DNA of 64,000 bases, taken from positions 64,001 to 128,000 of the forward strand of contig OY970320.1 in NCBI GenBank assembly GCA_963716745.1, read 5' to 3'. The translations under genes were made by a program, and so were the position numbers. Of this stretch, positions 48,157 through 64,000 are shown in pieces. The notes beneath the pieces were generated by a model. It had not been told where the DNA came from and did no database searches. It saw only the letters and a list, made by a program, of their open reading frames with translations. The number at the start of each line of letters is the position of its first letter. Within the stretch, counting starts at the first letter, position 1. The stretch comes from an uncultured Gemmatimonadaceae bacterium. Its GTDB lineage: Bacteria > Gemmatimonadota > Gemmatimonadetes > Gemmatimonadales > Gemmatimonadaceae.

Positions 48157-48173
48157 CGACGCACAATCGAATT

Positions 48174-48317
48174 GCGGATGCGGGTCCCGGAAGCCGGTGT
48201 GAATCCGGCGCGGTCCCGCCACTGTAACGGGCACATGAGTGCGCTCACCACGCCACTGGCCAGACAGGCTGGGAAGGCGGGCGCGCTGCCCGAAGCCAGG
48301 AGACGCCTCGCGTCCGC
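48174..48317 (+). ncRNA. Cobalamin riboswitch
   Basis: GGAAxxxGGTGxxAATCC, CCCGCCACTGTAA, GCCACTG...GGGAAGGC, AAGCCAGGAGAC; P1 48174-48184 pairs with 48307-48317; upstream of btuFCDB. Confidence 0.93.
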
Positions 48318-48386
48318 GCCACGAACTCAGTCCCTCGGAGAAAGGGCTGGTGGCCGCGCGAGCCGTTCCACTCGCGCGTGCACCCG

Positions 48387-53189: not shown

Positions 53190-53954
53190 ATGCCGCTTCT
53201 CGAGACCGACGCGATCGTCCTCCACGCCTTCGACTATTCGGAGACCAGTCGCATCCTCCGGCTCGCGACGCGCGACGCGGGGGTGCAGTCGGTGCTCGCG
53301 CGCGGCGCGCGGCGCTCCAAGAGCCGCTTCGGCAGCGCCGTGGACCTCTTCGCGCAGGGCCACGCCGAGCTGCATCTGCGCGAGGGCCGCGACCTGCAAA
53401 CGCTCAGCGCTTTTGACGTCACTCAGGCGCGCGCGGCGATCGCCAATGACCTCGGTCGCTTCACGGGCGCCAGCGCCATCGCCGAAATTGTGATGCGATT
53501 CGCCGCGGCCGACGACTCGCACGTCTCGCTCTTCGATGCATTAGGCCTCGCGCTCGATCGCGTGGCGAGCGCACCCGCGGAGCAGGCGAGCGAGGCCGCG
53601 CTCGGCGGCGCATGGCGTCTCCTTGCCGAGCTGGGGTTCGCGCCCCAGCTCGCCGAGTGCAGCGCGTGCCACACGCCGCTCGATCCCGCTGCCACCGTCG
53701 CATTCCAGCATGCCCTCGGCGGTGCGCTCTGCGCGTCGTGCGCCGCGCGGAACCCGGGCGGCCGCAGTCTCCCGGCCGCCGACCGCGCGCGCATCGCCGC
53801 GTGGACCGTGGGCAGCAGCACCTCCGCGCTCTCGCCGCGCGAGGCCCAGGCACACCAGCGTCTCCTGCGCGAATTCGTCGAATACCATCTCTCGGACAAT
53901 CGCGCTCTGCGGGCCTTCGCGGCGTGGGAGCATGGACACTGGGACGCTCCGTGA
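53190..53954 (+). CDS. recO: DNA repair protein RecO
   Basis: DYSETSRI, ARGARRSKSRFG, LGFAP, zinc finger CSAC...CASC. Confidence 0.93.
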   Translation: MPLLETDAIVLHAFDYSETSRILRLATRDAGVQSVLARGARRSKSRFGSAVDLFAQGHAELHLREGRDLQTLSAFDVTQARAAIANDLGRFTGASAIAEIVMRFAAADDSHVSLFDALGLALDRVASAPAEQASEAALGGAWRLLAELGFAPQLAECSACHTPLDPAATVAFQHALGGALCASCAARNPGGRSLPAADRARIAAWTVGSSTSALSPREAQAHQRLLREFVEYHLSDNRALRAFAAWEHGHWDAP

Positions 53955-55789
53955 TCCTCGGCACCGCCGGCCACGTCGATCACGGCAAGACCGCACTCGT
54001 GAAAGCGCTCACCGGCGTCGATACCGACCGGCTCGCCGAAGAGAAACGCCGCGGGATCACGATCGAACTGGGCTTCGCGCCACTCGTCATCGACGATCTC
54101 ACGCTCGGCGTGGTGGATGTGCCGGGCCACGAGGCATTCGTGCGCAACATGCTTGCCGGCGCCACCGGCATCGACCTCGCGCTCCTCGTGGTCGCCGCCG
54201 ACGAGGGCGTGATGCCGCAGACGCGCGAGCATCTAGCCATCCTCTCGTTACTCGGAATTCGCGGCGGCGTGATCGCCCTCACGAAGTGCGATCTCGGCGA
54301 CGCCGACTGGCGCGCGCTCGTGGCCGACAATGTGCGTGCCGCGGTGCAGGGAACTCCGCTCGCGAACGCGCCGATCGTCGCCACATCCGTGTCGACTGGC
54401 GAAGGGCTCGACGCGCTGCGTGCCGCCATCGCACACGCCGCCGCCGCGCTTCCCGCGCATGACGCGTCGGACCTCTTCCGTCTCCCGATCGATCGCGCGT
54501 TCACCGTGAAGGGCACCGGCACGGTGGTCACCGGCACCGTGTGGAGCGGCACGCTGGAGCGCGAGGCCGTGGTGAGAGTGCTGCCGCTCGAGAAGGAGGC
54601 GCGCGTGCGCGGCATCGAGTCGCACGGCCGCGCGGCCGAGCGGGCGCTCCCCGGAACGCGTGCCGCGATCGCGCTGTCGGGCGTTGAGGTCGCAGAAGTC
54701 TCGCGCGGCATGACGCTCGTGGCCGGCGCGGCCTGGTCGCCGTCGCGCGTACTGCTCGCCGAGGTCGCGCTGCTCGAGAGCGCTCCGCGCGCGCTCGGCG
54801 CCCGCACCGCCGTGCGATTCCACTTGGGTACGCAGGAGGTCGGCGCGCGTGTGGTCTGTCCGGGCGGCAAGCTCGCGGTGGGCGCCTCGGCACAGGCTCG
54901 CATCATGCTCGATCGGCCCGTGGTCGCGCGCGCCGGCGACAGGTTCGTGCTGCGCGGCGGTTCGCCGCTCACGACGATCGGCGGCGGTGTCGTGAACGAT
55001 CCGGCGCCGCCCGGCCGGCGGGCGCGCCCGTGGCCCGCGAGCACGCTCGCGCCCGCCGCGCGTCTCGCGCACGCCGTGGAGACGGCAGGCGCGCGCGGCG
55101 TGCCGCTCGCGGAGCTTGCATTGCGCACCGGCGTCTCGCCGCCGGAGGCAGCCGCCCTCGCCCAGAGTCTCGATGCCTCGACGCTCGAGGTATCAGGCGC
55201 GATCTATTCCGCGAGTATCCTGGACGATCTCGACCGCCGCCTCATCGCGCTCGTCGACGCCCATCACACGAAGTTCCCGCTCGACGCCGGCGCGCAGCTG
55301 CAATCGATCCGCGCGAAACTCGCAGCCGCGGATGCATTGGTGGACCACGCGCTCACACGCCGCACGCGCGACCGCACGCTCCAGGTGGAAGGCGCGCTCA
55401 TCCGCCGCGCCGGCTTCCGTCCTAAGCTCAATGACAGCCAGTCCAGGCGGCGCAACGAGATCCTCGACGCGCTGCGCGCCGCCGGCCGCGAGCCGCCCAC
55501 GGTCAGCGAACTCGAATCTCGCCTGGGAAAGGGCCTGGCTCCCCTCATGCGCATGCTGGATCGGGAAGGTCTACTCGTGGCCGTCGAGCAAGACCGCTAC
55601 TACGCGAAGGAGGCGCTCGATACGCTCATCGGCCAATTGCGCGCCACCCTCGCGCCGGGTCAGGTTTACCCGCCGAGCGACCTTCGCACCTTGCTGGGTG
55701 TCTCAAGGAAGTACCTGATCCCGCTCCTGGAATACCTCGACCGCACCGGCATGACGCGCCGTCACGCCGACGGCCGCTCGCTCGTGTAG
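53951..55789 (+). CDS. selB: Selenocysteine-specific elongation factor
   Basis: GTAGHVDHGKT, EEKRRGITIELGF, DVPGHEAFVRNM, C-terminal winged helix SRKYLIPLLEYLD. Confidence 0.96.
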   Translation: MILGTAGHVDHGKTALVKALTGVDTDRLAEEKRRGITIELGFAPLVIDDLTLGVVDVPGHEAFVRNMLAGATGIDLALLVVAADEGVMPQTREHLAILSLLGIRGGVIALTKCDLGDADWRALVADNVRAAVQGTPLANAPIVATSVSTGEGLDALRAAIAHAAAALPAHDASDLFRLPIDRAFTVKGTGTVVTGTVWSGTLEREAVVRVLPLEKEARVRGIESHGRAAERALPGTRAAIALSGVEVAEVSRGMTLVAGAAWSPSRVLLAEVALLESAPRALGARTAVRFHLGTQEVGARVVCPGGKLAVGASAQARIMLDRPVVARAGDRFVLRGGSPLTTIGGGVVNDPAPPGRRARPWPASTLAPAARLAHAVETAGARGVPLAELALRTGVSPPEAAALAQSLDASTLEVSGAIYSASILDDLDRRLIALVDAHHTKFPLDAGAQLQSIRAKLAAADALVDHALTRRTRDRTLQVEGALIRRAGFRPKLNDSQSRRRNEILDALRAAGREPPTVSELESRLGKGLAPLMRMLDREGLLVAVEQDRYYAKEALDTLIGQLRATLAPGQVYPPSDLRTLLGVSRKYLIPLLEYLDRTGMTRRHADGRSLV

Positions 55790-56896: not shown

Positions 56897-59491
<2,595 letters not shown>

Positions 59492-59495
<4 letters not shown>

Positions 59496-59961
59496 CGCAG
59501 GAGCGCGACGTCGCGTGGATGAAGGAAGCGTTGGTGCTGGCGCGCGAAGCGGCGACGTCACGGCGATGTGCCCGTGGGCGCGATCGTCGTGCGTCGCGAC
59601 GAGGTACTCGCGAAGTCCGCGAACCGCACCGTGCGCGATCAGGATCCCACGGCGCATGCCGAGGTCATCGCCATCCGTGAGGCGTCGCGCGTGCTCGGCA
59701 GCTGGCGGCTGGATGGCTGCTCGCTCTACGTGACGCTCGAGCCCTGCGCGATGTGCGCCGGCGCGATCGTGCTCGCGCGCGTGGATCGCGTGGTCTACGG
59801 CGCCTGGGATGAGAAAGGCGGGCATGGCGGGCAGCGTGGCCGACTTGCTCCGTCATCCGCGTTTGAACCATCGCCCCGAGGTCCTGGCCGGTGTCTGCGA
59901 ACCGTCGAGCGCCGAGTTGCTGAAATCCTTCTTCGCCGATCGCCGAGCGCCGAGCGCCTAG
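59492..59961 (+). CDS. tadA: tRNA adenosine(34) deaminase; apparent +1 frameshifts near 59558 and 59814-59817
   Basis: [32 protein letters not shown]...LNH...LLKSFF in the third frame. Confidence 0.9.
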
Positions 59962-59970
59962 GGCCCGCAG

Positions 59971-59999
59971 TTGGAGTACGGCCCCCGCGCCGTTAACTT
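59971..59999 (+). promoter_or_regulatory. sigma70-like promoter of tRNA-Ser
   Basis: TTGGAG-N17-TAACTT. Confidence 0.55.
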
Positions 60000-60013
60000 T
60001 GTCCGTCCCCCAA

Positions 60014-60100
60014 GGACGGGTGGCCGAGTGGTTGAAGGCACCGGTCTCGAAAACCGGCATACCGGAAACGGTATCGTGAGTTCGAATCTCACCCCGTCCG
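60014..60100 (+). tRNA. tRNA-Ser (anticodon CGA), CCA not encoded
   Basis: Acceptor stem GGACGGG/CCCGTCC plus discriminator G, anticodon arm CCGGT-CTCGAAA-ACCGG, long variable arm, GTTCGAATC T-loop. Confidence 0.96.
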
Positions 60101-60107
60101 TGATGAC

Positions 60108-60142
60108 AGAGAGCCCGCGCAGTGATGCGCGGGCTCTTTTTT
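60108..60142 (+). terminator. Intrinsic terminator after tRNA-Ser, possibly bidirectional
   Basis: AGAGCCCGCGCA-GTGA-TGCGCGGGCTCT followed by a T run. Confidence 0.88.
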
Positions 60143-60161
60143 ATCTCGACGGCGGAGGCGG

Positions 60162-61586
60162 TCAGAACGCCATCCACAAGTACAAGTACAACGCACTGTT
60201 GTTCATTGCGGTCCGTGGTGTCGTGCCATCGTACGCGCTCGCCCCGCCGTTGAACTTGGAGTAGAGTGTGTACTGGATCGCGAACCGCGTGTTCTGCCAC
60301 GGATTGTAATCGAACTCGCCGATCCATCCAGCGCTGTTCGGGCTCCCGCTGGCGCTGCCGGTCACGGCCCCCGGTTGGTAGAGCAATGCATCGGCAGTGC
60401 CGCTCGTGCCGAACGCCCCGAGCGTGAAGCCGAGATAAAGCGATGGGTCGTACGACGCGTTGACTTTCCAACTCGAGAGCGTGTTCGCGACTGACGACGC
60501 TTCACCTGATCCGAACGCCGCACCGAGCGACTGCGATTCGTGGATCCAGCTTGCGCGGCCAATGAGCGCGCCATCGGTCAGCTTGCGCTCATACTGCGCG
60601 TCGAGCGCCACGTCGGTATATCGATTCGTCGGGCCCGAGACGCCGGTCGGGCCCAATGAAGTCTCCATCCCGAACGTGCCCACCATCACATAGTCCTTGG
60701 ACCACTGATGTTGCAGCGCAACGCGCCAATATGGAGCGGCCCCGATCGGCAATCCGGTGACTGTCGTGTCGAGCGGATACGCGACACCCTGCGGCGCGCG
60801 CCCATATGCGGTGAACTCAGCATAGACCAGGTTGTTCCAAAGGCCGTACGCTCCGAGCCCCACCACCTGTTGGCCCAGCGCGCCGTCGACGATCGGTGCC
60901 GCGATGGGCGATGGAGCGATCGGCGACGACATGAACGGGAAGCTCCAGGCGGGCACCGTATTCCACGGATCTTGCACGGTGGGATTGTTCTCAAGCGAGA
61001 CGCCGTACACCAAGCTCTTCCCCGCAAACTGTGTGCGGTCGGCGAATCGCAGATCCACGTTGTCGAGTCCGATGGCGCCGTCCGGCGCGGTGTAGGTCAA
61101 CTGGATGAACGCTCCGATTCTTGGCGTCATCTCGCCGGCGTAGAACAGGCTCAATTGATCGGGAAAGAGCACGCCGCCATTCGCGGTGCCCGGGATCGCT
61201 GCGTTCAGGTGCGTCGACGACACCACAAGCATCGCGGCGACCGGCGAGATCGGCGACAGTTTCAGTGTTTCGCGGTCGGCCGAATCCTTCTGCGAGATGT
61301 TGACGAGACCCGTGAGCGTGTAGCCGTTGAGTTTGAAATTCCGGCCGAACGGTGTGAGTTGCGGGAACTGGTAGTGACACGCGCTGCACGCCAAGTGCGT
61401 TTGGCGGGAGAAACTTGGAAGCCGCCGCGCGAGTTGCGCGGCGCCCGCGGGATTCCCGGTGAGCGTGAAGCGCGCGCTCGCCGGCGACTCCCCGGCGGTC
61501 GCCATCGACCGGCGCGGCGCGAAGCCCGCCAGGAGCAGCGCGAGTGACGCAGCGCTCGCGATCTTGAGTGGACGAGAGATGGTCAT
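60162..61586 (-). CDS. Cyc2-like outer-membrane cytochrome c-porin fusion
   Basis: Signal peptide; LPSFSRQTHLACSACHYQFPQLTPFGRNFKLNGY (single CxxCH at 61374-61388); beta-barrel ending LYLYLWMAF. Confidence 0.82.
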   Translation of the reverse strand: MTISRPLKIASAASLALLLAGFAPRRSMATAGESPASARFTLTGNPAGAAQLARRLPSFSRQTHLACSACHYQFPQLTPFGRNFKLNGYTLTGLVNISQKDSADRETLKLSPISPVAAMLVVSSTHLNAAIPGTANGGVLFPDQLSLFYAGEMTPRIGAFIQLTYTAPDGAIGLDNVDLRFADRTQFAGKSLVYGVSLENNPTVQDPWNTVPAWSFPFMSSPIAPSPIAAPIVDGALGQQVVGLGAYGLWNNLVYAEFTAYGRAPQGVAYPLDTTVTGLPIGAAPYWRVALQHQWSKDYVMVGTFGMETSLGPTGVSGPTNRYTDVALDAQYERKLTDGALIGRASWIHESQSLGAAFGSGEASSVANTLSSWKVNASYDPSLYLGFTLGAFGTSGTADALLYQPGAVTGSASGSPNSAGWIGEFDYNPWQNTRFAIQYTLYSKFNGGASAYDGTTPRTAMNNSALYLYLWMAF

Positions 61587-61633
61587 GTGGATCGACGCTC
61601 CCGGCGTGGAGGAATGGAACTGGGCCGTTCCGA

Positions 61634-62035
61634 TCAGGGCTTCGTTTTGCCGTGGCTCACCGACCACACATAGACCGCCACGTTGACCGCCTGCGCGTCG
61701 GAGATCCCGTTCGGATGGGAGACCATCGCGGTCCCGTCTACGCCGTGCGTGATCACCCGATAGATCTCCGGCAGAGTGCCGTTCGTCGCATCCTTCCATT
61801 TGTGCGCCTGAAGAGCTGGCGCGATGGGCGTGCCCTCGAGGTCCTGTCCATGACAGGCCAGGCAATTGCCGGCGCCATGGAACACCTGGCGGCCTTCAGC
61901 GATCATCGTGGTGGTGATCTGGGCGGTATCGGGGAGCGGTGCCTGCTCGATGCTCGCGCTGCCGGACGTCGACCCGAAAGCCGACGCGAGCACGACCACT
62001 CCGAGTGCAATGGCGATAGCGGAAGATTTGCGCAT
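61634..62035 (-). CDS. Periplasmic monoheme class I cytochrome c
   Basis: Signal peptide, CLACH, GxxxAPxL, candidate distal Met in GTAMVS. Confidence 0.9.
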   Translation of the reverse strand: MRKSSAIAIALGVVVLASAFGSTSGSASIEQAPLPDTAQITTTMIAEGRQVFHGAGNCLACHGQDLEGTPIAPALQAHKWKDATNGTLPEIYRVITHGVDGTAMVSHPNGISDAQAVNVAVYVWSVSHGKTKP

Positions 62036-62138
62036 GCGCGCACGATACGCGGGCTACGGCGTTAGCGCAGTCGGCAGAATCCCGGTTCGGCGTAAGGGTT
62101 TCGCTGAGTACGACCGCTGCGATCGCACCGGTCGACGG

Positions 62139-62828
62139 TCAGGGCCCGGTGGCGCCCCCGTCGGTCAGCAGCCCGAGCTTGAGCGCGAAGGCGACGTAAT
62201 CGGCACGCTTCATTAAGCCGACCTTCTCGTTGATCCGCTGTTTGTACGTATCGACAGTCTTCGGACTGATGACCAGCCGATCGCCGATCTCGGGCGCGGT
62301 GTAGCCTGCCGCTACCAGGCGCAGCACATTGCGCTCGCGCGCAGTCAGCTTCTCATATCGCGCTCGCTCGCCCGCGTGCTCGTCCTTCTTGGTCAGCTCT
62401 TTCGCCAGCACGAGCGCCGCCGTGGGCCGCACGAATATCTCCCCGCGCGCCACGGTTCGCACCGCGTTCACCAACTCGCGGTCCGCGACGCTCTTCATGA
62501 TGTAGCCTGAGGCGCCCGCCTCGAGCAGCGGCACGAGGTACTCCTCCTCCGCGTGCATTGTGAGCACGAGCACGCGCGTCGTACCGCCTTTCGCGGTGAT
62601 CGCCTTCGTGGCGCTCAGGCCATCCATGCCTGCCATTGTCAGGTCCATCACGACGACATCCGGCTGGAGTCGCTCGACGAGCGCGAGCGCCTCCGAGCCA
62701 TTACTGGCCTCGCCCACGACTTCGATGCCTTGCGCGGCGCCGAGGACGGCCTTCAGGCCGGCGCGAACGATCGGGTGATCGTCGGTGAGGATCACGCGGA
62801 TCGTCGTGCCACTGATGCGGTCACTCAT
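62139..62828 (-). CDS. NarL/FixJ family response regulator (REC + LuxR HTH)
   Basis: TDDHPIVRAG, MDLTM, LTMH, LTARERNVL, ISPKTVDTY. Confidence 0.95.
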   Translation of the reverse strand: MSDRISGTTIRVILTDDHPIVRAGLKAVLGAAQGIEVVGEASNGSEALALVERLQPDVVVMDLTMAGMDGLSATKAITAKGGTTRVLVLTMHAEEEYLVPLLEAGASGYIMKSVADRELVNAVRTVARGEIFVRPTAALVLAKELTKKDEHAGERARYEKLTARERNVLRLVAAGYTAPEIGDRLVISPKTVDTYKQRINEKVGLMKRADYVAFALKLGLLTDGGATGP

Positions 62829-63850
62829 CGTGCCAGCGGGATCGAGGTGCGAACGCGAGTTCCGGAGCCCATGGAGCTTTCGATCTCGAGGGATCCCCTC
62901 ACCAGTATCGTGCGCTCGCGCATGGAGAAGAGTCCCATGCCCGGCCGGCGGCGCTCCGCCTCGCGCAGGTCGAAGCCGGAGCCGTCGTCGGAGACTTCCA
63001 GCTGCGCCGCGCCGTCTGTGACGGTCACGCTGATGCGCACGGCGTCGGGGTCAGCATGGCGGACCGCATTTCCGAGCGCCTCCTGCGCGACGCGATAGAG
63101 CACGCTCGCCACGGGCGGCGGCAACTCCGTCACGTCGCCGGAAGCATCGACCGTCACCGGAACGCCGGAAGCGAGTCGCGTGGTACGCGCCAGCCACTCC
63201 AAAGCGGCGACGAGGCCGAGATCGTCCAGCACCCGCGGATGCACAGTGTGCGACAGGTGGCGGACTTCCTCGAGTGCGTCCACCGCCATATTGCGCACTT
63301 CGTCCAGGCGCTGCGCCGATCCCGCATCGCGCTCCTCGCGTACGGCGACGCTCAGATGGAGCAGGAGCGCGGTGAGCGTTTGTGCCACCGAGTCGTGCAG
63401 TTCGCGCGCGATCCGCCCTCGCTCCTCGTCCTGCGCGTTGATCACCTGCGACGCGAGGAGGCGCGACCGCGCACTGTCTGCCGTCAGATCGTCGAGAAGC
63501 GCATTGATGGCGCCGCCGACGCGGAAAAGGTCCGGATCGGCGAGGCGCGACGGCTCCACACGGGCAGCGCGGTCGCCGCGCAGCACGCGCGACGCCGTGA
63601 GCTCCAATTCTCGCAGCGGCCACAGCGCGAGGCGGACGAGTGCGAGGTTCACGATAAGCGCCGCGATCAACAGCCCCGCCATAGCGATCCCGATCTGCGG
63701 CCTCGCCGCCGGAACGAGCCGGTCGAGCACCAGCAGCGCCACCAGCACGATGACCAGGTTCGCGCCGGCGATCTTTGCGCCGAGTGATACGCGAACCACC
63801 CGCTCCCATGCACGGCGGGCCGATGCGTCCCCCTCGGTGGATGTCAGCAC
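62825..63850 (-). CDS. Membrane sensor histidine kinase (2 TM, HAMP, HisKA_3, HATPase)
   Basis: EERGRIARELHDS, LDDLGL, YRVAQEALGNAVRHA, DDGSGF, GMGL; stop overlaps the regulator start. Confidence 0.93.
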   Translation of the reverse strand: MLTSTEGDASARRAWERVVRVSLGAKIAGANLVIVLVALLVLDRLVPAARPQIGIAMAGLLIAALIVNLALVRLALWPLRELELTASRVLRGDRAARVEPSRLADPDLFRVGGAINALLDDLTADSARSRLLASQVINAQDEERGRIARELHDSVAQTLTALLLHLSVAVREERDAGSAQRLDEVRNMAVDALEEVRHLSHTVHPRVLDDLGLVAALEWLARTTRLASGVPVTVDASGDVTELPPPVASVLYRVAQEALGNAVRHADPDAVRISVTVTDGAAQLEVSDDGSGFDLREAERRRPGMGLFSMRERTILVRGSLEIESSMGSGTRVRTSIPLAR

Positions 63851-64000
63851 GTACTGAATCTAGCGCGCACCGCTGGTGCCGGAGTCCGGCGTCCGGATGT
63901 GTTCCGCGCGGAATCCGATCCCGATGACACGCGCCGGGAATGCGCCGCAGCAGCGCGAACTTCTGCAGCAACCAGAGCGGGAAGGGGAGTCTCGAGATCG

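Follow-up and report, generated by a model that had tools for sequence, protein, structure and literature searches.

Does the genome of a soil heterotroph encode a surface protein that draws electrons from outside the cell? The question is raised by a gene on the minus strand of a 64,000-nucleotide (nt) stretch of contig OY970320.1 (assembly GCA_963716745.1, positions 64,001 to 128,000), which derives from an uncultured Gemmatimonadaceae bacterium and is referred to here, at its full length, as the window. A preliminary description had designated this gene a Cyc2-type cytochrome-porin fusion and a candidate outer-membrane Fe(II) oxidase or electron conduit, with the caution that Fe(II) oxidation was a hypothesis. 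The gene was found to be a Cyc2-type haem-porin of a known kind, with iron oxidation putative, and we uphold that caution. Our favored reading, held at slightly better than even confidence, is that this Cluster 2 Cyc2-type conduit takes electrons inward from a dissolved extracellular reductant in an aerobic soil heterotroph. The most likely donor would be dissolved or organically bound Fe(II), a candidate that we propose tentatively, with Mn(II) and reduced organic matter as alternatives.

Architecture and family placement of the cyc2-type gene

The open reading frame (ORF) extends on the minus strand from an ATG at 61586 to a stop at 60162, and its product of 474 amino acids (aa) was divided into the following parts.

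60162..61586, minus strand: cyc2-type gene of Cluster 2, encoding a 474-aa monohaem cytochrome fused to a 16-strand porin (ORF, trees, AlphaFold model, and fold match)
61500..61586, minus strand: probable Sec signal peptide, residues 1-29, with the cut placed from sequence, a hydropathy window, and aligned homologue N-termini (a cut after residue 31 is possible)
61422..61499, minus strand: extra segment, residues ~30-55, ending in Arg-Arg and absent from canonical Cyc2 (position counts; low-confidence helix at 46-54 in the full-length model)
61374..61421, minus strand: haem motif L56-H71, composed of xPxFSRQT, three residues, and CxxCH (sequence, alignment, and the consensus in PMC8406198)
60165..61241, minus strand: 16-strand beta-barrel, residues ~116-474, with an OprP-like fold and a C-terminal Phe (two AlphaFold models and fold search)

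The single CxxCH of the protein (C67, C70, H71) lies within L56-PSFSRQTHLACSACHYQFPQLTPFGRNFKLNGY, and the last residue is Phe474. Section 12 of PMC8406198 delimits the Cyc2 lineage by length, a single CxxCH, a PxL, and a haem motif consensus. At 474 aa the protein is within the stipulated length of at least 365 aa, its only CxxCH is N-terminal (residues 67-71), and a PQL standing four residues past the haem His is followed by GRxFK; P75-Q-L77, G81, and F84 are conserved across all three Cyc2 clusters. In a six-frame scan of the host genome G000 (a single 3.29-Mb contig, 89.8% complete), a loose Cyc2 motif pattern matched just one of 19,185 ORFs. The N-terminus has the features of a signal peptide as read from the sequence, including a basic start, a hydrophobic stretch with a mean hydropathy of 2.3, and a probable cut near A29/A31. 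The Cyc2 motif noticed in the preliminary description is present; it reads F-S-RQT instead of F-A-RQT and is positioned ~26 residues past the signal peptide instead of adjoining it.

Structure prediction yielded the barrel with an N-terminal haem domain that had been anticipated. The AlphaFold2 mature-domain model (residues 55-474, based on an alignment of 103 Cluster 2 sequences) had a mean predicted local distance difference test score (pLDDT) of 93.5 and a predicted template modeling score of 0.90, and displayed 16 long strands that come after a small, helical haem domain. This model superseded a first full-length model (58 close homologues), in which the haem domain was at a pLDDT <50 and the barrel was the same. 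The 16 long strands were common to both models and the terminal Phe was as described, with the beta region found to be ~360 aa rather than the ~380 aa first stated. The best fold match of the model among 48,161 solved chains was the phosphate porin OprP (2o4v; Z 21.9, root-mean-square deviation 3.6, 315 residues aligned), although further 16-strand porins scored within 1 Z unit of it and are effectively tied. OprP is the template class reported for Cyc2 in PMC8406198, and the predicted barrel is of the OprO/OprP-like 16-strand outer-membrane type expected of Cyc2. Across the query and the 120 listed database matches, exactly one CxxCH was detected in 120 of 121 proteins and a C-terminal Phe in 119. 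Searches of Pfam, NCBIfam, and PDB sequences with the 474-aa protein returned no family and no solved relative; NCBIfam was silent on the Acidithiobacillus ferrivorans Cyc2 control as well, so this null result is uninformative.

The gene is real and intact, despite single-base assembly errors nearby. Soil-metagenome short-read contigs match parts of cyc2 and the junction between it and a neighboring cytochrome gene at 98-100% (four runs from three studies were consulted; the cyc2 and cytochrome pieces came from X1 and X2 of one study, with X1 possibly the source sample). Among the runs listed as matching, none was an RNA data set. Elsewhere in the window, clpB, a tadA-like gene, and btuB (~51520) are split by frameshifts. 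Short-read contigs have one base fewer at window positions 58849, 59820, and 63939, and the splits there look like long-read assembly errors.

The protein search returned 2095 homologues from 8000 scored candidates, and the organism-named ones among the 120 listed were all Gemmatimonadota or Gemmatimonadaceae at 55-61% identity; the nearest Atlas clusters were also mostly Gemmatimonadota, in agreement with the host phylum that had been proposed. For named references, Genome Taxonomy Database (GTDB) genomes were scanned with a short motif of Acidithiobacillus Cyc2. The resulting 29 loci include A. ferrivorans, A. ferriphilus, A. ferrianus, Ferrovum, and one Zetaproteobacterium, and the Acidithiobacillus genes among them head rus-type operons (cyc2, a dihaem cytochrome, a cup-like ORF, and oxidase subunits, with a rusticyanin match in A. 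ferrianus). Sampling was extended to 61 Zetaproteobacteria, 301 genomes of the Ferrovum order (presumably Burkholderiales, and labeled as such here), and 301 genomes of the host phylum. In total, 170 Cyc2 cores of 340 to 560 aa ending in a stop were extracted, from which L004 and L042 (frameshifted) were left out of the trees.

Three trees were built: FastTree with 168 rows, a quick IQ-TREE with 54 rows, and a bootstrap tree with 33 rows. The published Cyc2 clusters (PMC7029218; PMC8406198, Fig. S7) were recovered in all three, with cluster names set from the named Acidithiobacillus, Ferrovum, and Zetaproteobacteria loci together with that figure. The 474-aa protein was placed within Cluster 2 (100/100 with 33 rows, SH-aLRT 100 with 54 rows, and 1.0 with 168 rows), inside a Gemmatimonadota clade (94/98). 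The single CxxCH, the 16-strand model, the OprP fold, and the three trees together bear out the cytochrome-porin designation. Aligned over its whole core, the query shares 33-35% identity (E 2e-52 to 1e-58) with the Cyc2 proteins encoded in the rus operons of A. ferrivorans, A. ferriphilus, and A. ferrianus. Identity is higher, at 46-48%, to some homologues from Burkholderiales, and alignment with the Cluster 1 and Cluster 3 types is almost confined to the first 110 residues. The N-terminus had also been described as particularly like that of Acidithiobacillus Cyc2. The two share a cluster, but the haem domain is nearer to some Burkholderiales (up to 74%) than to the seven Acidithiobacillus sequences (58-63%), Cluster 1 being at 42-61%. 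A sister relation between the Gemmatimonadota clade and the Acidithiobacillus group was neither supported nor rejected (p-AU 0.246). A subgroup shared by the two was found in IQ-TREE (97; 86/92) and was missing in FastTree; special closeness within Cluster 2 is not claimed.

Cyc2 in Gemmatimonadota is already published and common, and the gene call is of a known kind. Homologues have been reported from metagenome-assembled genomes of this phylum (PMC9769843, PMC11316326) and a Cluster 2 cyc2 from the heterotrophic Leptothrix-Sphaerotilus group (PMC11412304), such that the gene call by itself matters little: Cyc2 homologues are routine in heterotrophs, Gemmatimonadota included. Among the 301 Gemmatimonadota genomes, 126 matched a broad Cyc2 profile (E up to 0.001), not all of the weak matches having been checked for the haem motif; 56 matched below 1e-90, which after subtraction of three Cluster 1 types leaves ~53 (18%) with the type of the query, a hand tally in which not every carrier was placed on a tree. 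The survey also revealed four Gemmatimonadales genomes with a Cluster 1 cyc2, i.e., L020/L039 (G033), L040 (G021), L185 (G460), and L186 (G525), nested among the Cluster 1 sequences of the Ferrovum order. In G021 the gene order is a 4Fe-4S protein, an NrfD-cytochrome fusion, a second (Cluster 3-type) cyc2, a monohaem cytochrome, and then the Cluster 1 cyc2, the locus adjoining an 18-haem cytochrome and a barrel-like gene. These Gemmatimonadales Cluster 1 genes are better iron-oxidizer candidates than the cyc2 of the window. At two further loci, L041 (G022:C4) and L042 (G005:C6, of the host's genus), a Cluster 3-type cyc2 stands immediately ahead of a dihaem cytochrome gene and a complete haem-copper oxidase operon, with the L042 cyc2 frameshifted.

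Electron carriers, host capacity, and the proposed direction of electron flow

The genes adjoining cyc2 and the borders of the region that carries them are as follows.

61634..62035, minus strand: class I monohaem cytochrome c of 133 aa that has a signal peptide, a CxxCH at C58/C61/H62, and an invariant Met (M104), and is probably the partner in the periplasm (domain search, alignment, and co-location)
62139..62828, minus strand: NarL/LuxR-family response regulator (Pfam/NCBIfam); at 8 of 125 loci, its own among them, a close homologue is found near cyc2
62825..63850, minus strand: sensor histidine kinase of the HisKA_3 type (Pfam/NCBIfam) in which two hydrophobic segments stand close together; at 5 of 125 loci, its own among them, a close homologue is found near cyc2
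60014..60100, plus strand: tRNA-Ser(CGA), convergent with cyc2, at the left border of a variable slot (RNA search)
60108..60139, plus strand: intrinsic-terminator-like hairpin between tRNA-Ser and the cyc2 stop (hairpin scan)
60142..63884, no strand assigned: accessory cassette of 3.7 kb comprising cyc2, cytochrome, regulator, and kinase (comparison with congeneric genomes)

The cytochrome gene is encoded on the same strand as cyc2, with its stop codon 47 nt before the cyc2 start, and the nearest solved relatives of its product are CcoP domains and cytochrome c6. Linkage of this kind was found to recur. Among 125 loci with close cyc2 homologues, taken both from genomes and from metagenome contigs, the cytochrome family was detected within 1.5 kb of cyc2 at 70, a plastocyanin-type protein at 17, and sulfocyanin at 5, one locus having two, for an electron carrier at 91 of 125. 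In the subset of 60 loci with at least 1450 nt on both sides of cyc2, the corresponding counts were 33, 8, and 4 with one overlap and none at 16; that is, only cytochrome at 32, only plastocyanin-type at 7, only sulfocyanin at 4, and cytochrome with a blue-copper protein at 1. Family f3 accounts for 6 of the 16 carrier-free loci. In other related loci a blue-copper protein mostly takes the place of the cytochrome. The position and orientation of the cytochrome relative to cyc2 vary among loci, which argues that the linkage is more functional than inherited. Furthermore, 23 of the 26 Gemmatimonadota genomes with a strong cytochrome match (E <=1e-20) hold a full-length cyc2 of this type, 20 of them within 2 kb (hand tally; 22/25 and 19/25 without genome G012), compared with 53 of 301 Gemmatimonadota genomes overall; conversely, only 23 of the 53 carriers have the cytochrome. 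A complex prediction with Cyc2, the neighboring cytochrome, and two haems scored 0.02 against a mark of 0.32 and was used neither way.

The host genome was also examined for haem maturation and terminal oxidases. It was found to encode (i) Ccm haem-attachment genes; (ii) one haem-copper oxidase, located outside the cassette, whose subunit II has a CxxCH (cytochrome c domain); (iii) a bd oxidase; and (iv) an alternative-complex-III-like operon, as read from the gene pattern. RuBisCO, NiFe hydrogenase, and a photosynthetic reaction center were not found in the 89.8% complete genome, in line with the heterotroph-like genome described earlier, and the gene content fits an aerobic heterotroph. The blue-copper, sulfocyanin, VIT1, and multicopper-oxidase genes found beside cyc2 in relatives likewise have homologues in this genome, at sites not linked to cyc2, and a plastocyanin-family fragment is located 8 kb from cyc2 (G000:C1:133902-134111; L027:13903-14112).

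Based on the whole-core likeness to Acidithiobacillus, the Cluster 2 support, the OprP fold, the carrier linkage, and the Ccm and oxidase genes, we favor inward electron transfer. Cyc2 would be exported, with haem attached at C67/C70/H71, and inserted in the outer membrane, where the small haem domain would plug the periplasmic mouth of the barrel. A donor would enter the pore and reduce the haem, and the electron would then pass from haem to the neighboring monohaem cytochrome, to a caa3-type oxidase, and to O2. The gain in electrons would supplement organic respiration rather than serve as a basis for autotrophy, and the adjacent two-component pair would probably switch on cyc2 and the cytochrome. 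Typically, His/Met cytochromes and blue-copper proteins have high potentials and act as carriers on the side of the oxidase. Cyc1 and rusticyanin are the Acidithiobacillus carriers of that kind (PMC13741234), and all three Cyc2 clusters, tested biochemically, oxidize Fe(II) (PMC8406198, section 13).

The same neighborhoods may instead point to metal homeostasis or protection, in which surface oxidation of Fe(II), Mn(II), or Cu(I) by the conduit would limit metal entry or Fenton chemistry, with electrons reaching O2 as a by-product. Among 44 loci with flanks of at least 3.5 kb, DoxX was found at 11, the VIT1/CCC1 Fe-Mn transporter at 10, Usp at 8, a small multicopper oxidase at 5, and the same regulator at 4. 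Heavy-metal efflux and P-type ATPase-like genes adjoin cyc2 in G017 (as read from gene calls), a divalent metal transporter adjoins the Polymorphobacter homologue, and the distribution of cyc2 is accessory and patchy. None of those metal genes is in the cassette of the window, however, where the sole constant neighbor is an electron carrier; the chemistry would be the same as in inward electron transfer and the benefit alone would differ. We consider this explanation unlikely, though worth keeping in view.

The cassette itself was delimited by comparison with congeners. The flanks are 83-93% identical in three congeneric genomes up to window position 60142 and again from 63884, with unrelated genes between, and the four genes are thus regarded as an accessory cassette. 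The slot behind tRNA-Ser(CGA) holds four different cargoes in four congeneric genomes, the flanks being conserved, and in a fourth congener (G001) the cytochrome-cyc2 pair is at a different site. A tRNA-Ser(GGA) is located 5.2 kb beyond tRNA-Ser(CGA) (G000:C1:129194-129282). Apart from the 76% likeness of the two tRNA-Ser genes, no flanking direct repeat (att) was found, and no integrase was recognized among the nearby gene calls, not all of which were annotated. The third-position GC content (GC3) of cyc2 is 0.80, the 6th percentile of 1896 genes and only mildly atypical. A sigma-70 promoter scan found none.

The regulatory pair bears on two other explanations. In the first, electrons would be disposed of outward at low oxygen, from a periplasmic cytochrome through the Cyc2 haem to dissolved Fe(III) chelates or humic quinones. 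The NarL-family pair in the cassette is consistent with this, as are the Usp (8/44) and pyridoxamine-oxidase-like (3/44) genes near cyc2 of relatives and the U32 peptidase and SCP2 genes beside an Acidiphilium-type plasmid homologue; U32 peptidase and SCP2 proteins have a role in O2-independent ubiquinone synthesis. One Cluster 1 Cyc2 is at -130 mV (PMC13692758), such that potentials vary widely. Set against this, the partner carriers belong to a class whose potential is normally high, upstream regions show no enrichment of FNR-like boxes (4/106 versus a 3.2% background) and none was found at two mismatches in window 59000-64000, and a separate multihaem-plus-barrel locus of the host genome would suit outward transfer better. 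We judge outward disposal to be improbable. The separate locus (L310, G000:C1:2666875-2671364) is positioned beside the ccm operon and includes fragments of multihaem cytochrome with 7 and 2 CxxCH, a protein of 477 aa for which the closest Atlas clusters with an annotation are barrels of the outer membrane, and a cytochrome with 16 haems; it is a probable porin-cytochrome conduit of a sort common in Gemmatimonadota clusters. In the second explanation, the protein would be a haem-gated channel or redox sensor, the plug controlling solutes or signaling the outside redox state to the kinase with no net electron flux. The kinase, as read from sequence, apparently has no large outer sensor domain and recurs near cyc2, the fold is that of a substrate-selective porin, and the N-terminus of the clade is altered. 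Regulator (8/125) and kinase (5/125) are nonetheless rare beside cyc2 compared with electron carriers (91/125), and a gate or sensor seems very improbable to us.

Several observations weigh against inward electron transfer from Fe(II). To our knowledge, no member of the Gemmatimonadota Cluster 2 clade has been tested biochemically, and no named iron oxidizer falls within this clade in the trees. The cassette contains no oxidase genes and no rus-type operon (cyc1, cup, coxBACD, rus), holding beside cyc2 only the monohaem cytochrome and the two-component pair. The host genome has a single full COX1-family gene and no cbb3 oxidase was found in it, while the lack of RuBisCO is to be read with the search having been confined to that route of carbon fixation. 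The cassette is dispensable, as three congeners are without it at this site, and a full-length cyc2 match was detected in only one of five congeners (63-89% complete). Kin and near-duplicate loci, with one genome counted twice, inflate the co-location counts, and the DoxX, VIT1, Usp, and small multicopper oxidase neighbors suggest stress or metal handling as much as energy gain. Residues of the proposed Fe(II) site appear to be partly retained: for positions 137/138, 262, and 308 given in PMC13741234, the A. ferrianus stand-in (485 aa) has G137, E138, Y262, and E308, not all as named in that source, and at 138, 262, and 308 the query keeps E152 and Y261 but has M301 in place of the last, the mapping being uncertain. 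The equivalent of position 308 is Met in 38 of 63 sequences of the Gemmatimonadota clade and Glu in 17. Finally, the family's authors note that much of Cluster 2 is far from the tested proteins and that the function of distant Cluster 2 and 3 members should not be presumed (PMC8406198). The role of Cluster 2 proteins in heterotrophs decides whether cyc2 is usable as a marker of soil iron oxidation.

Farther from cyc2, the window contains a cobalamin riboswitch (RF00174, 80.3 bits; 48164-48326, plus strand) ahead of a btuF/C/D/B-like uptake operon, named from sequence, and a gene for a SelB-like elongation factor (53954-55789, as read from sequence); a tRNA-Sec is located at G000:C1:216449-216545.

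The altered N-terminus of the Gemmatimonadota clade

AxPxFAR[QK][TY] is the Cyc2 consensus as published, and PxFAR[QK][TY] was the pattern by which the reference set was screened (PMC8406198). The query reads R-L-P-S-F-S-R-Q-T, with Arg in place of the first Ala and Ser in place of the second, so it departs from the strict consensus; its motif stands 35 residues past the hydrophobic core, compared with a median of 7 in other Cluster 2 and in Cluster 1. On these two grounds, and because its clade as a whole shows a measurable departure at the N-terminus together with an exchanged partner in the periplasm, the query is filed as a variant rather than a canonical member. The F-S-RQT form was found in 37 of 63 Gemmatimonadota Cluster 2 sequences, compared with 3/60 among the remaining Cluster 2 proteins and 1/32 in Cluster 1, and this clade may therefore be under-represented in a reference set screened for Ala. 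An Ala directly precedes the motif in 59/60 other Cluster 2, 32/32 Cluster 1, and 11/13 Cluster 3 sequences, compared with 13/62 in the Gemmatimonadota clade. Outside the clade, this Ala, a median of 7 residues past the hydrophobic core in Clusters 1 and 2, is the signal peptidase site. A gap of >15 residues between hydrophobic core and motif occurs in 54 of 62 clade sequences, 1 of 60 other Cluster 2 sequences, and 102 of 111 usable database matches. The inserted segment of the clade comprises 15-50 residues between signal peptide and haem motif; family f3 retains the canonical form. As judged from these positions, the motif of the query is apparently not the mature N-terminus unless a second cut occurs.

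This departure is of interest for the haem. AlphaFold 3 models of three Cyc2 proteins have one axial His only (PMC13741234), whereas electron paramagnetic resonance and ultraviolet-visible spectra of a Cluster 1 Cyc2 indicate a low-spin haem with two axial ligands, read by the authors as His or Met (PMC13692758). Apart from H71, no His or Met position proved invariant across the 103 sequences of Cluster 2 (M119 in 80, M307 in 66, H349 in 77). Edman sequencing places the start of Cyt572 at the motif, immediately past the signal cut (PMC13741234), and in cytochrome f the haem takes its sixth ligand from the first residue of the mature protein, namely the alpha-amino group (PMC6616624). By analogy, canonical Cyc2 may use its mature N-terminal amine as the sixth ligand, which would explain the two axial ligands of the spectra versus the one His of models and alignments; the Gemmatimonadota clade would then need a second cut or another ligand. 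The segment ends of 165 clade sequences were found to include an AxA-type site in 13, a His in the last six residues in 69, two basic residues in 48 (Arg-Arg in the query), one basic residue in the last three in 24, and none of these features in 11. The 69 with His are candidates for a swapped-in ligand, and an Arg-Arg end is a candidate site for a second protease. A literature search found no paper on such a segment or on an N-terminal ligand in Cyc2, with the proviso that subscription papers may bear on the point.

In its boldest form the proposal is that the xPxFARQT start places the N-terminal amine on the haem iron, that most proteins of the clade are protease-activated pro-proteins or His-swapped forms, and that an abundant soil phylum gains energy from iron; we regard this combination as speculative and unlikely. 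If amine ligation were correct, the extra segment would retune the haem or require an activating cut, and if Fe(II) were still used, a soil phylum would gain iron energy by means of a regulated, mobile cassette of cyc2 and carrier. The extra segment is a natural test of the sixth haem ligand of Cyc2, and the two-gene system is small enough for expression in E. coli.

Relationship to known Cyc2 systems

The closest system of demonstrated function is that of A. ferrooxidans, whose Cyc2 is a Cluster 2 protein, was shown biochemically to be an Fe(II) oxidase, and is encoded by the first gene of the rus operon; its sequence is represented here by those of A. ferrivorans, A. ferriphilus, and A. ferrianus. 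Common to both are Cluster 2 membership, one CxxCH, the same motif and PxL spacing, the 16-strand barrel, and a periplasmic cytochrome gene adjoining cyc2. Unlike Acidithiobacillus, the cassette of the window is without cup, coxBACD, and rusticyanin; its partner is a monohaem cytochrome instead of the dihaem Cyc1; the motif is F-S-RQT instead of F-A-RQT; ~26 extra residues precede it, whereas Acidithiobacillus Cyc2 starts at the motif past a 31-residue signal peptide (PMC13741234); and the host is apparently a soil heterotroph.

The Cluster 2 proteins of heterotrophic Proteobacteria (Caballeronia, Ralstonia, Ideonella, Methylocystis, and Acidiphilium plasmids; Burkholderiales) are 30-48% identical to the query at full length and likewise form, with a c-type cytochrome, a small mobile or patchy unit of putative function. 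They differ in having Ala at -1 with the motif adjoining the signal peptide (59/60) and in partners that are often dihaem. Fifteen plasmid records with a full-length Cluster 2-like cyc2 were noted; in five of the six regions opened (L021-L026) a c-type cytochrome is annotated directly behind cyc2, while the Ralstonia record has no annotation there yet does have a dihaem ORF. The Caballeronia plasmid encodes an iron-sulfur protein of high potential (HiPIP) upstream of cyc2, and the Acidiphilium-type plasmid encodes U32 peptidases.

Cluster 1 (Mariprofundus PV-1, Ghiorsea TAG-1, and Gallionellaceae) shares with the query its architecture and haem motif (42-61% over residues 55-92), but forms a separate clade (100/100) with a barrel only 13-20% identical. 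Iron oxidation is best supported for Cluster 1 (PMC8406198), and the query is outside this cluster. Cyt572 of Leptospirillum and other Cluster 3 proteins have the same monohaem cytochrome-porin layout; the 13 Cluster 3-type sequences, represented in the trees by the second Zetaproteobacterial type rather than by Leptospirillum, differ by a FARKY-type motif, a haem domain 32-47% identical, and a barrel 13-18% identical to the query. The likeness to cytochrome f is an analogy of haem ligation alone, with no relation to the query found in sequence and fold searches.

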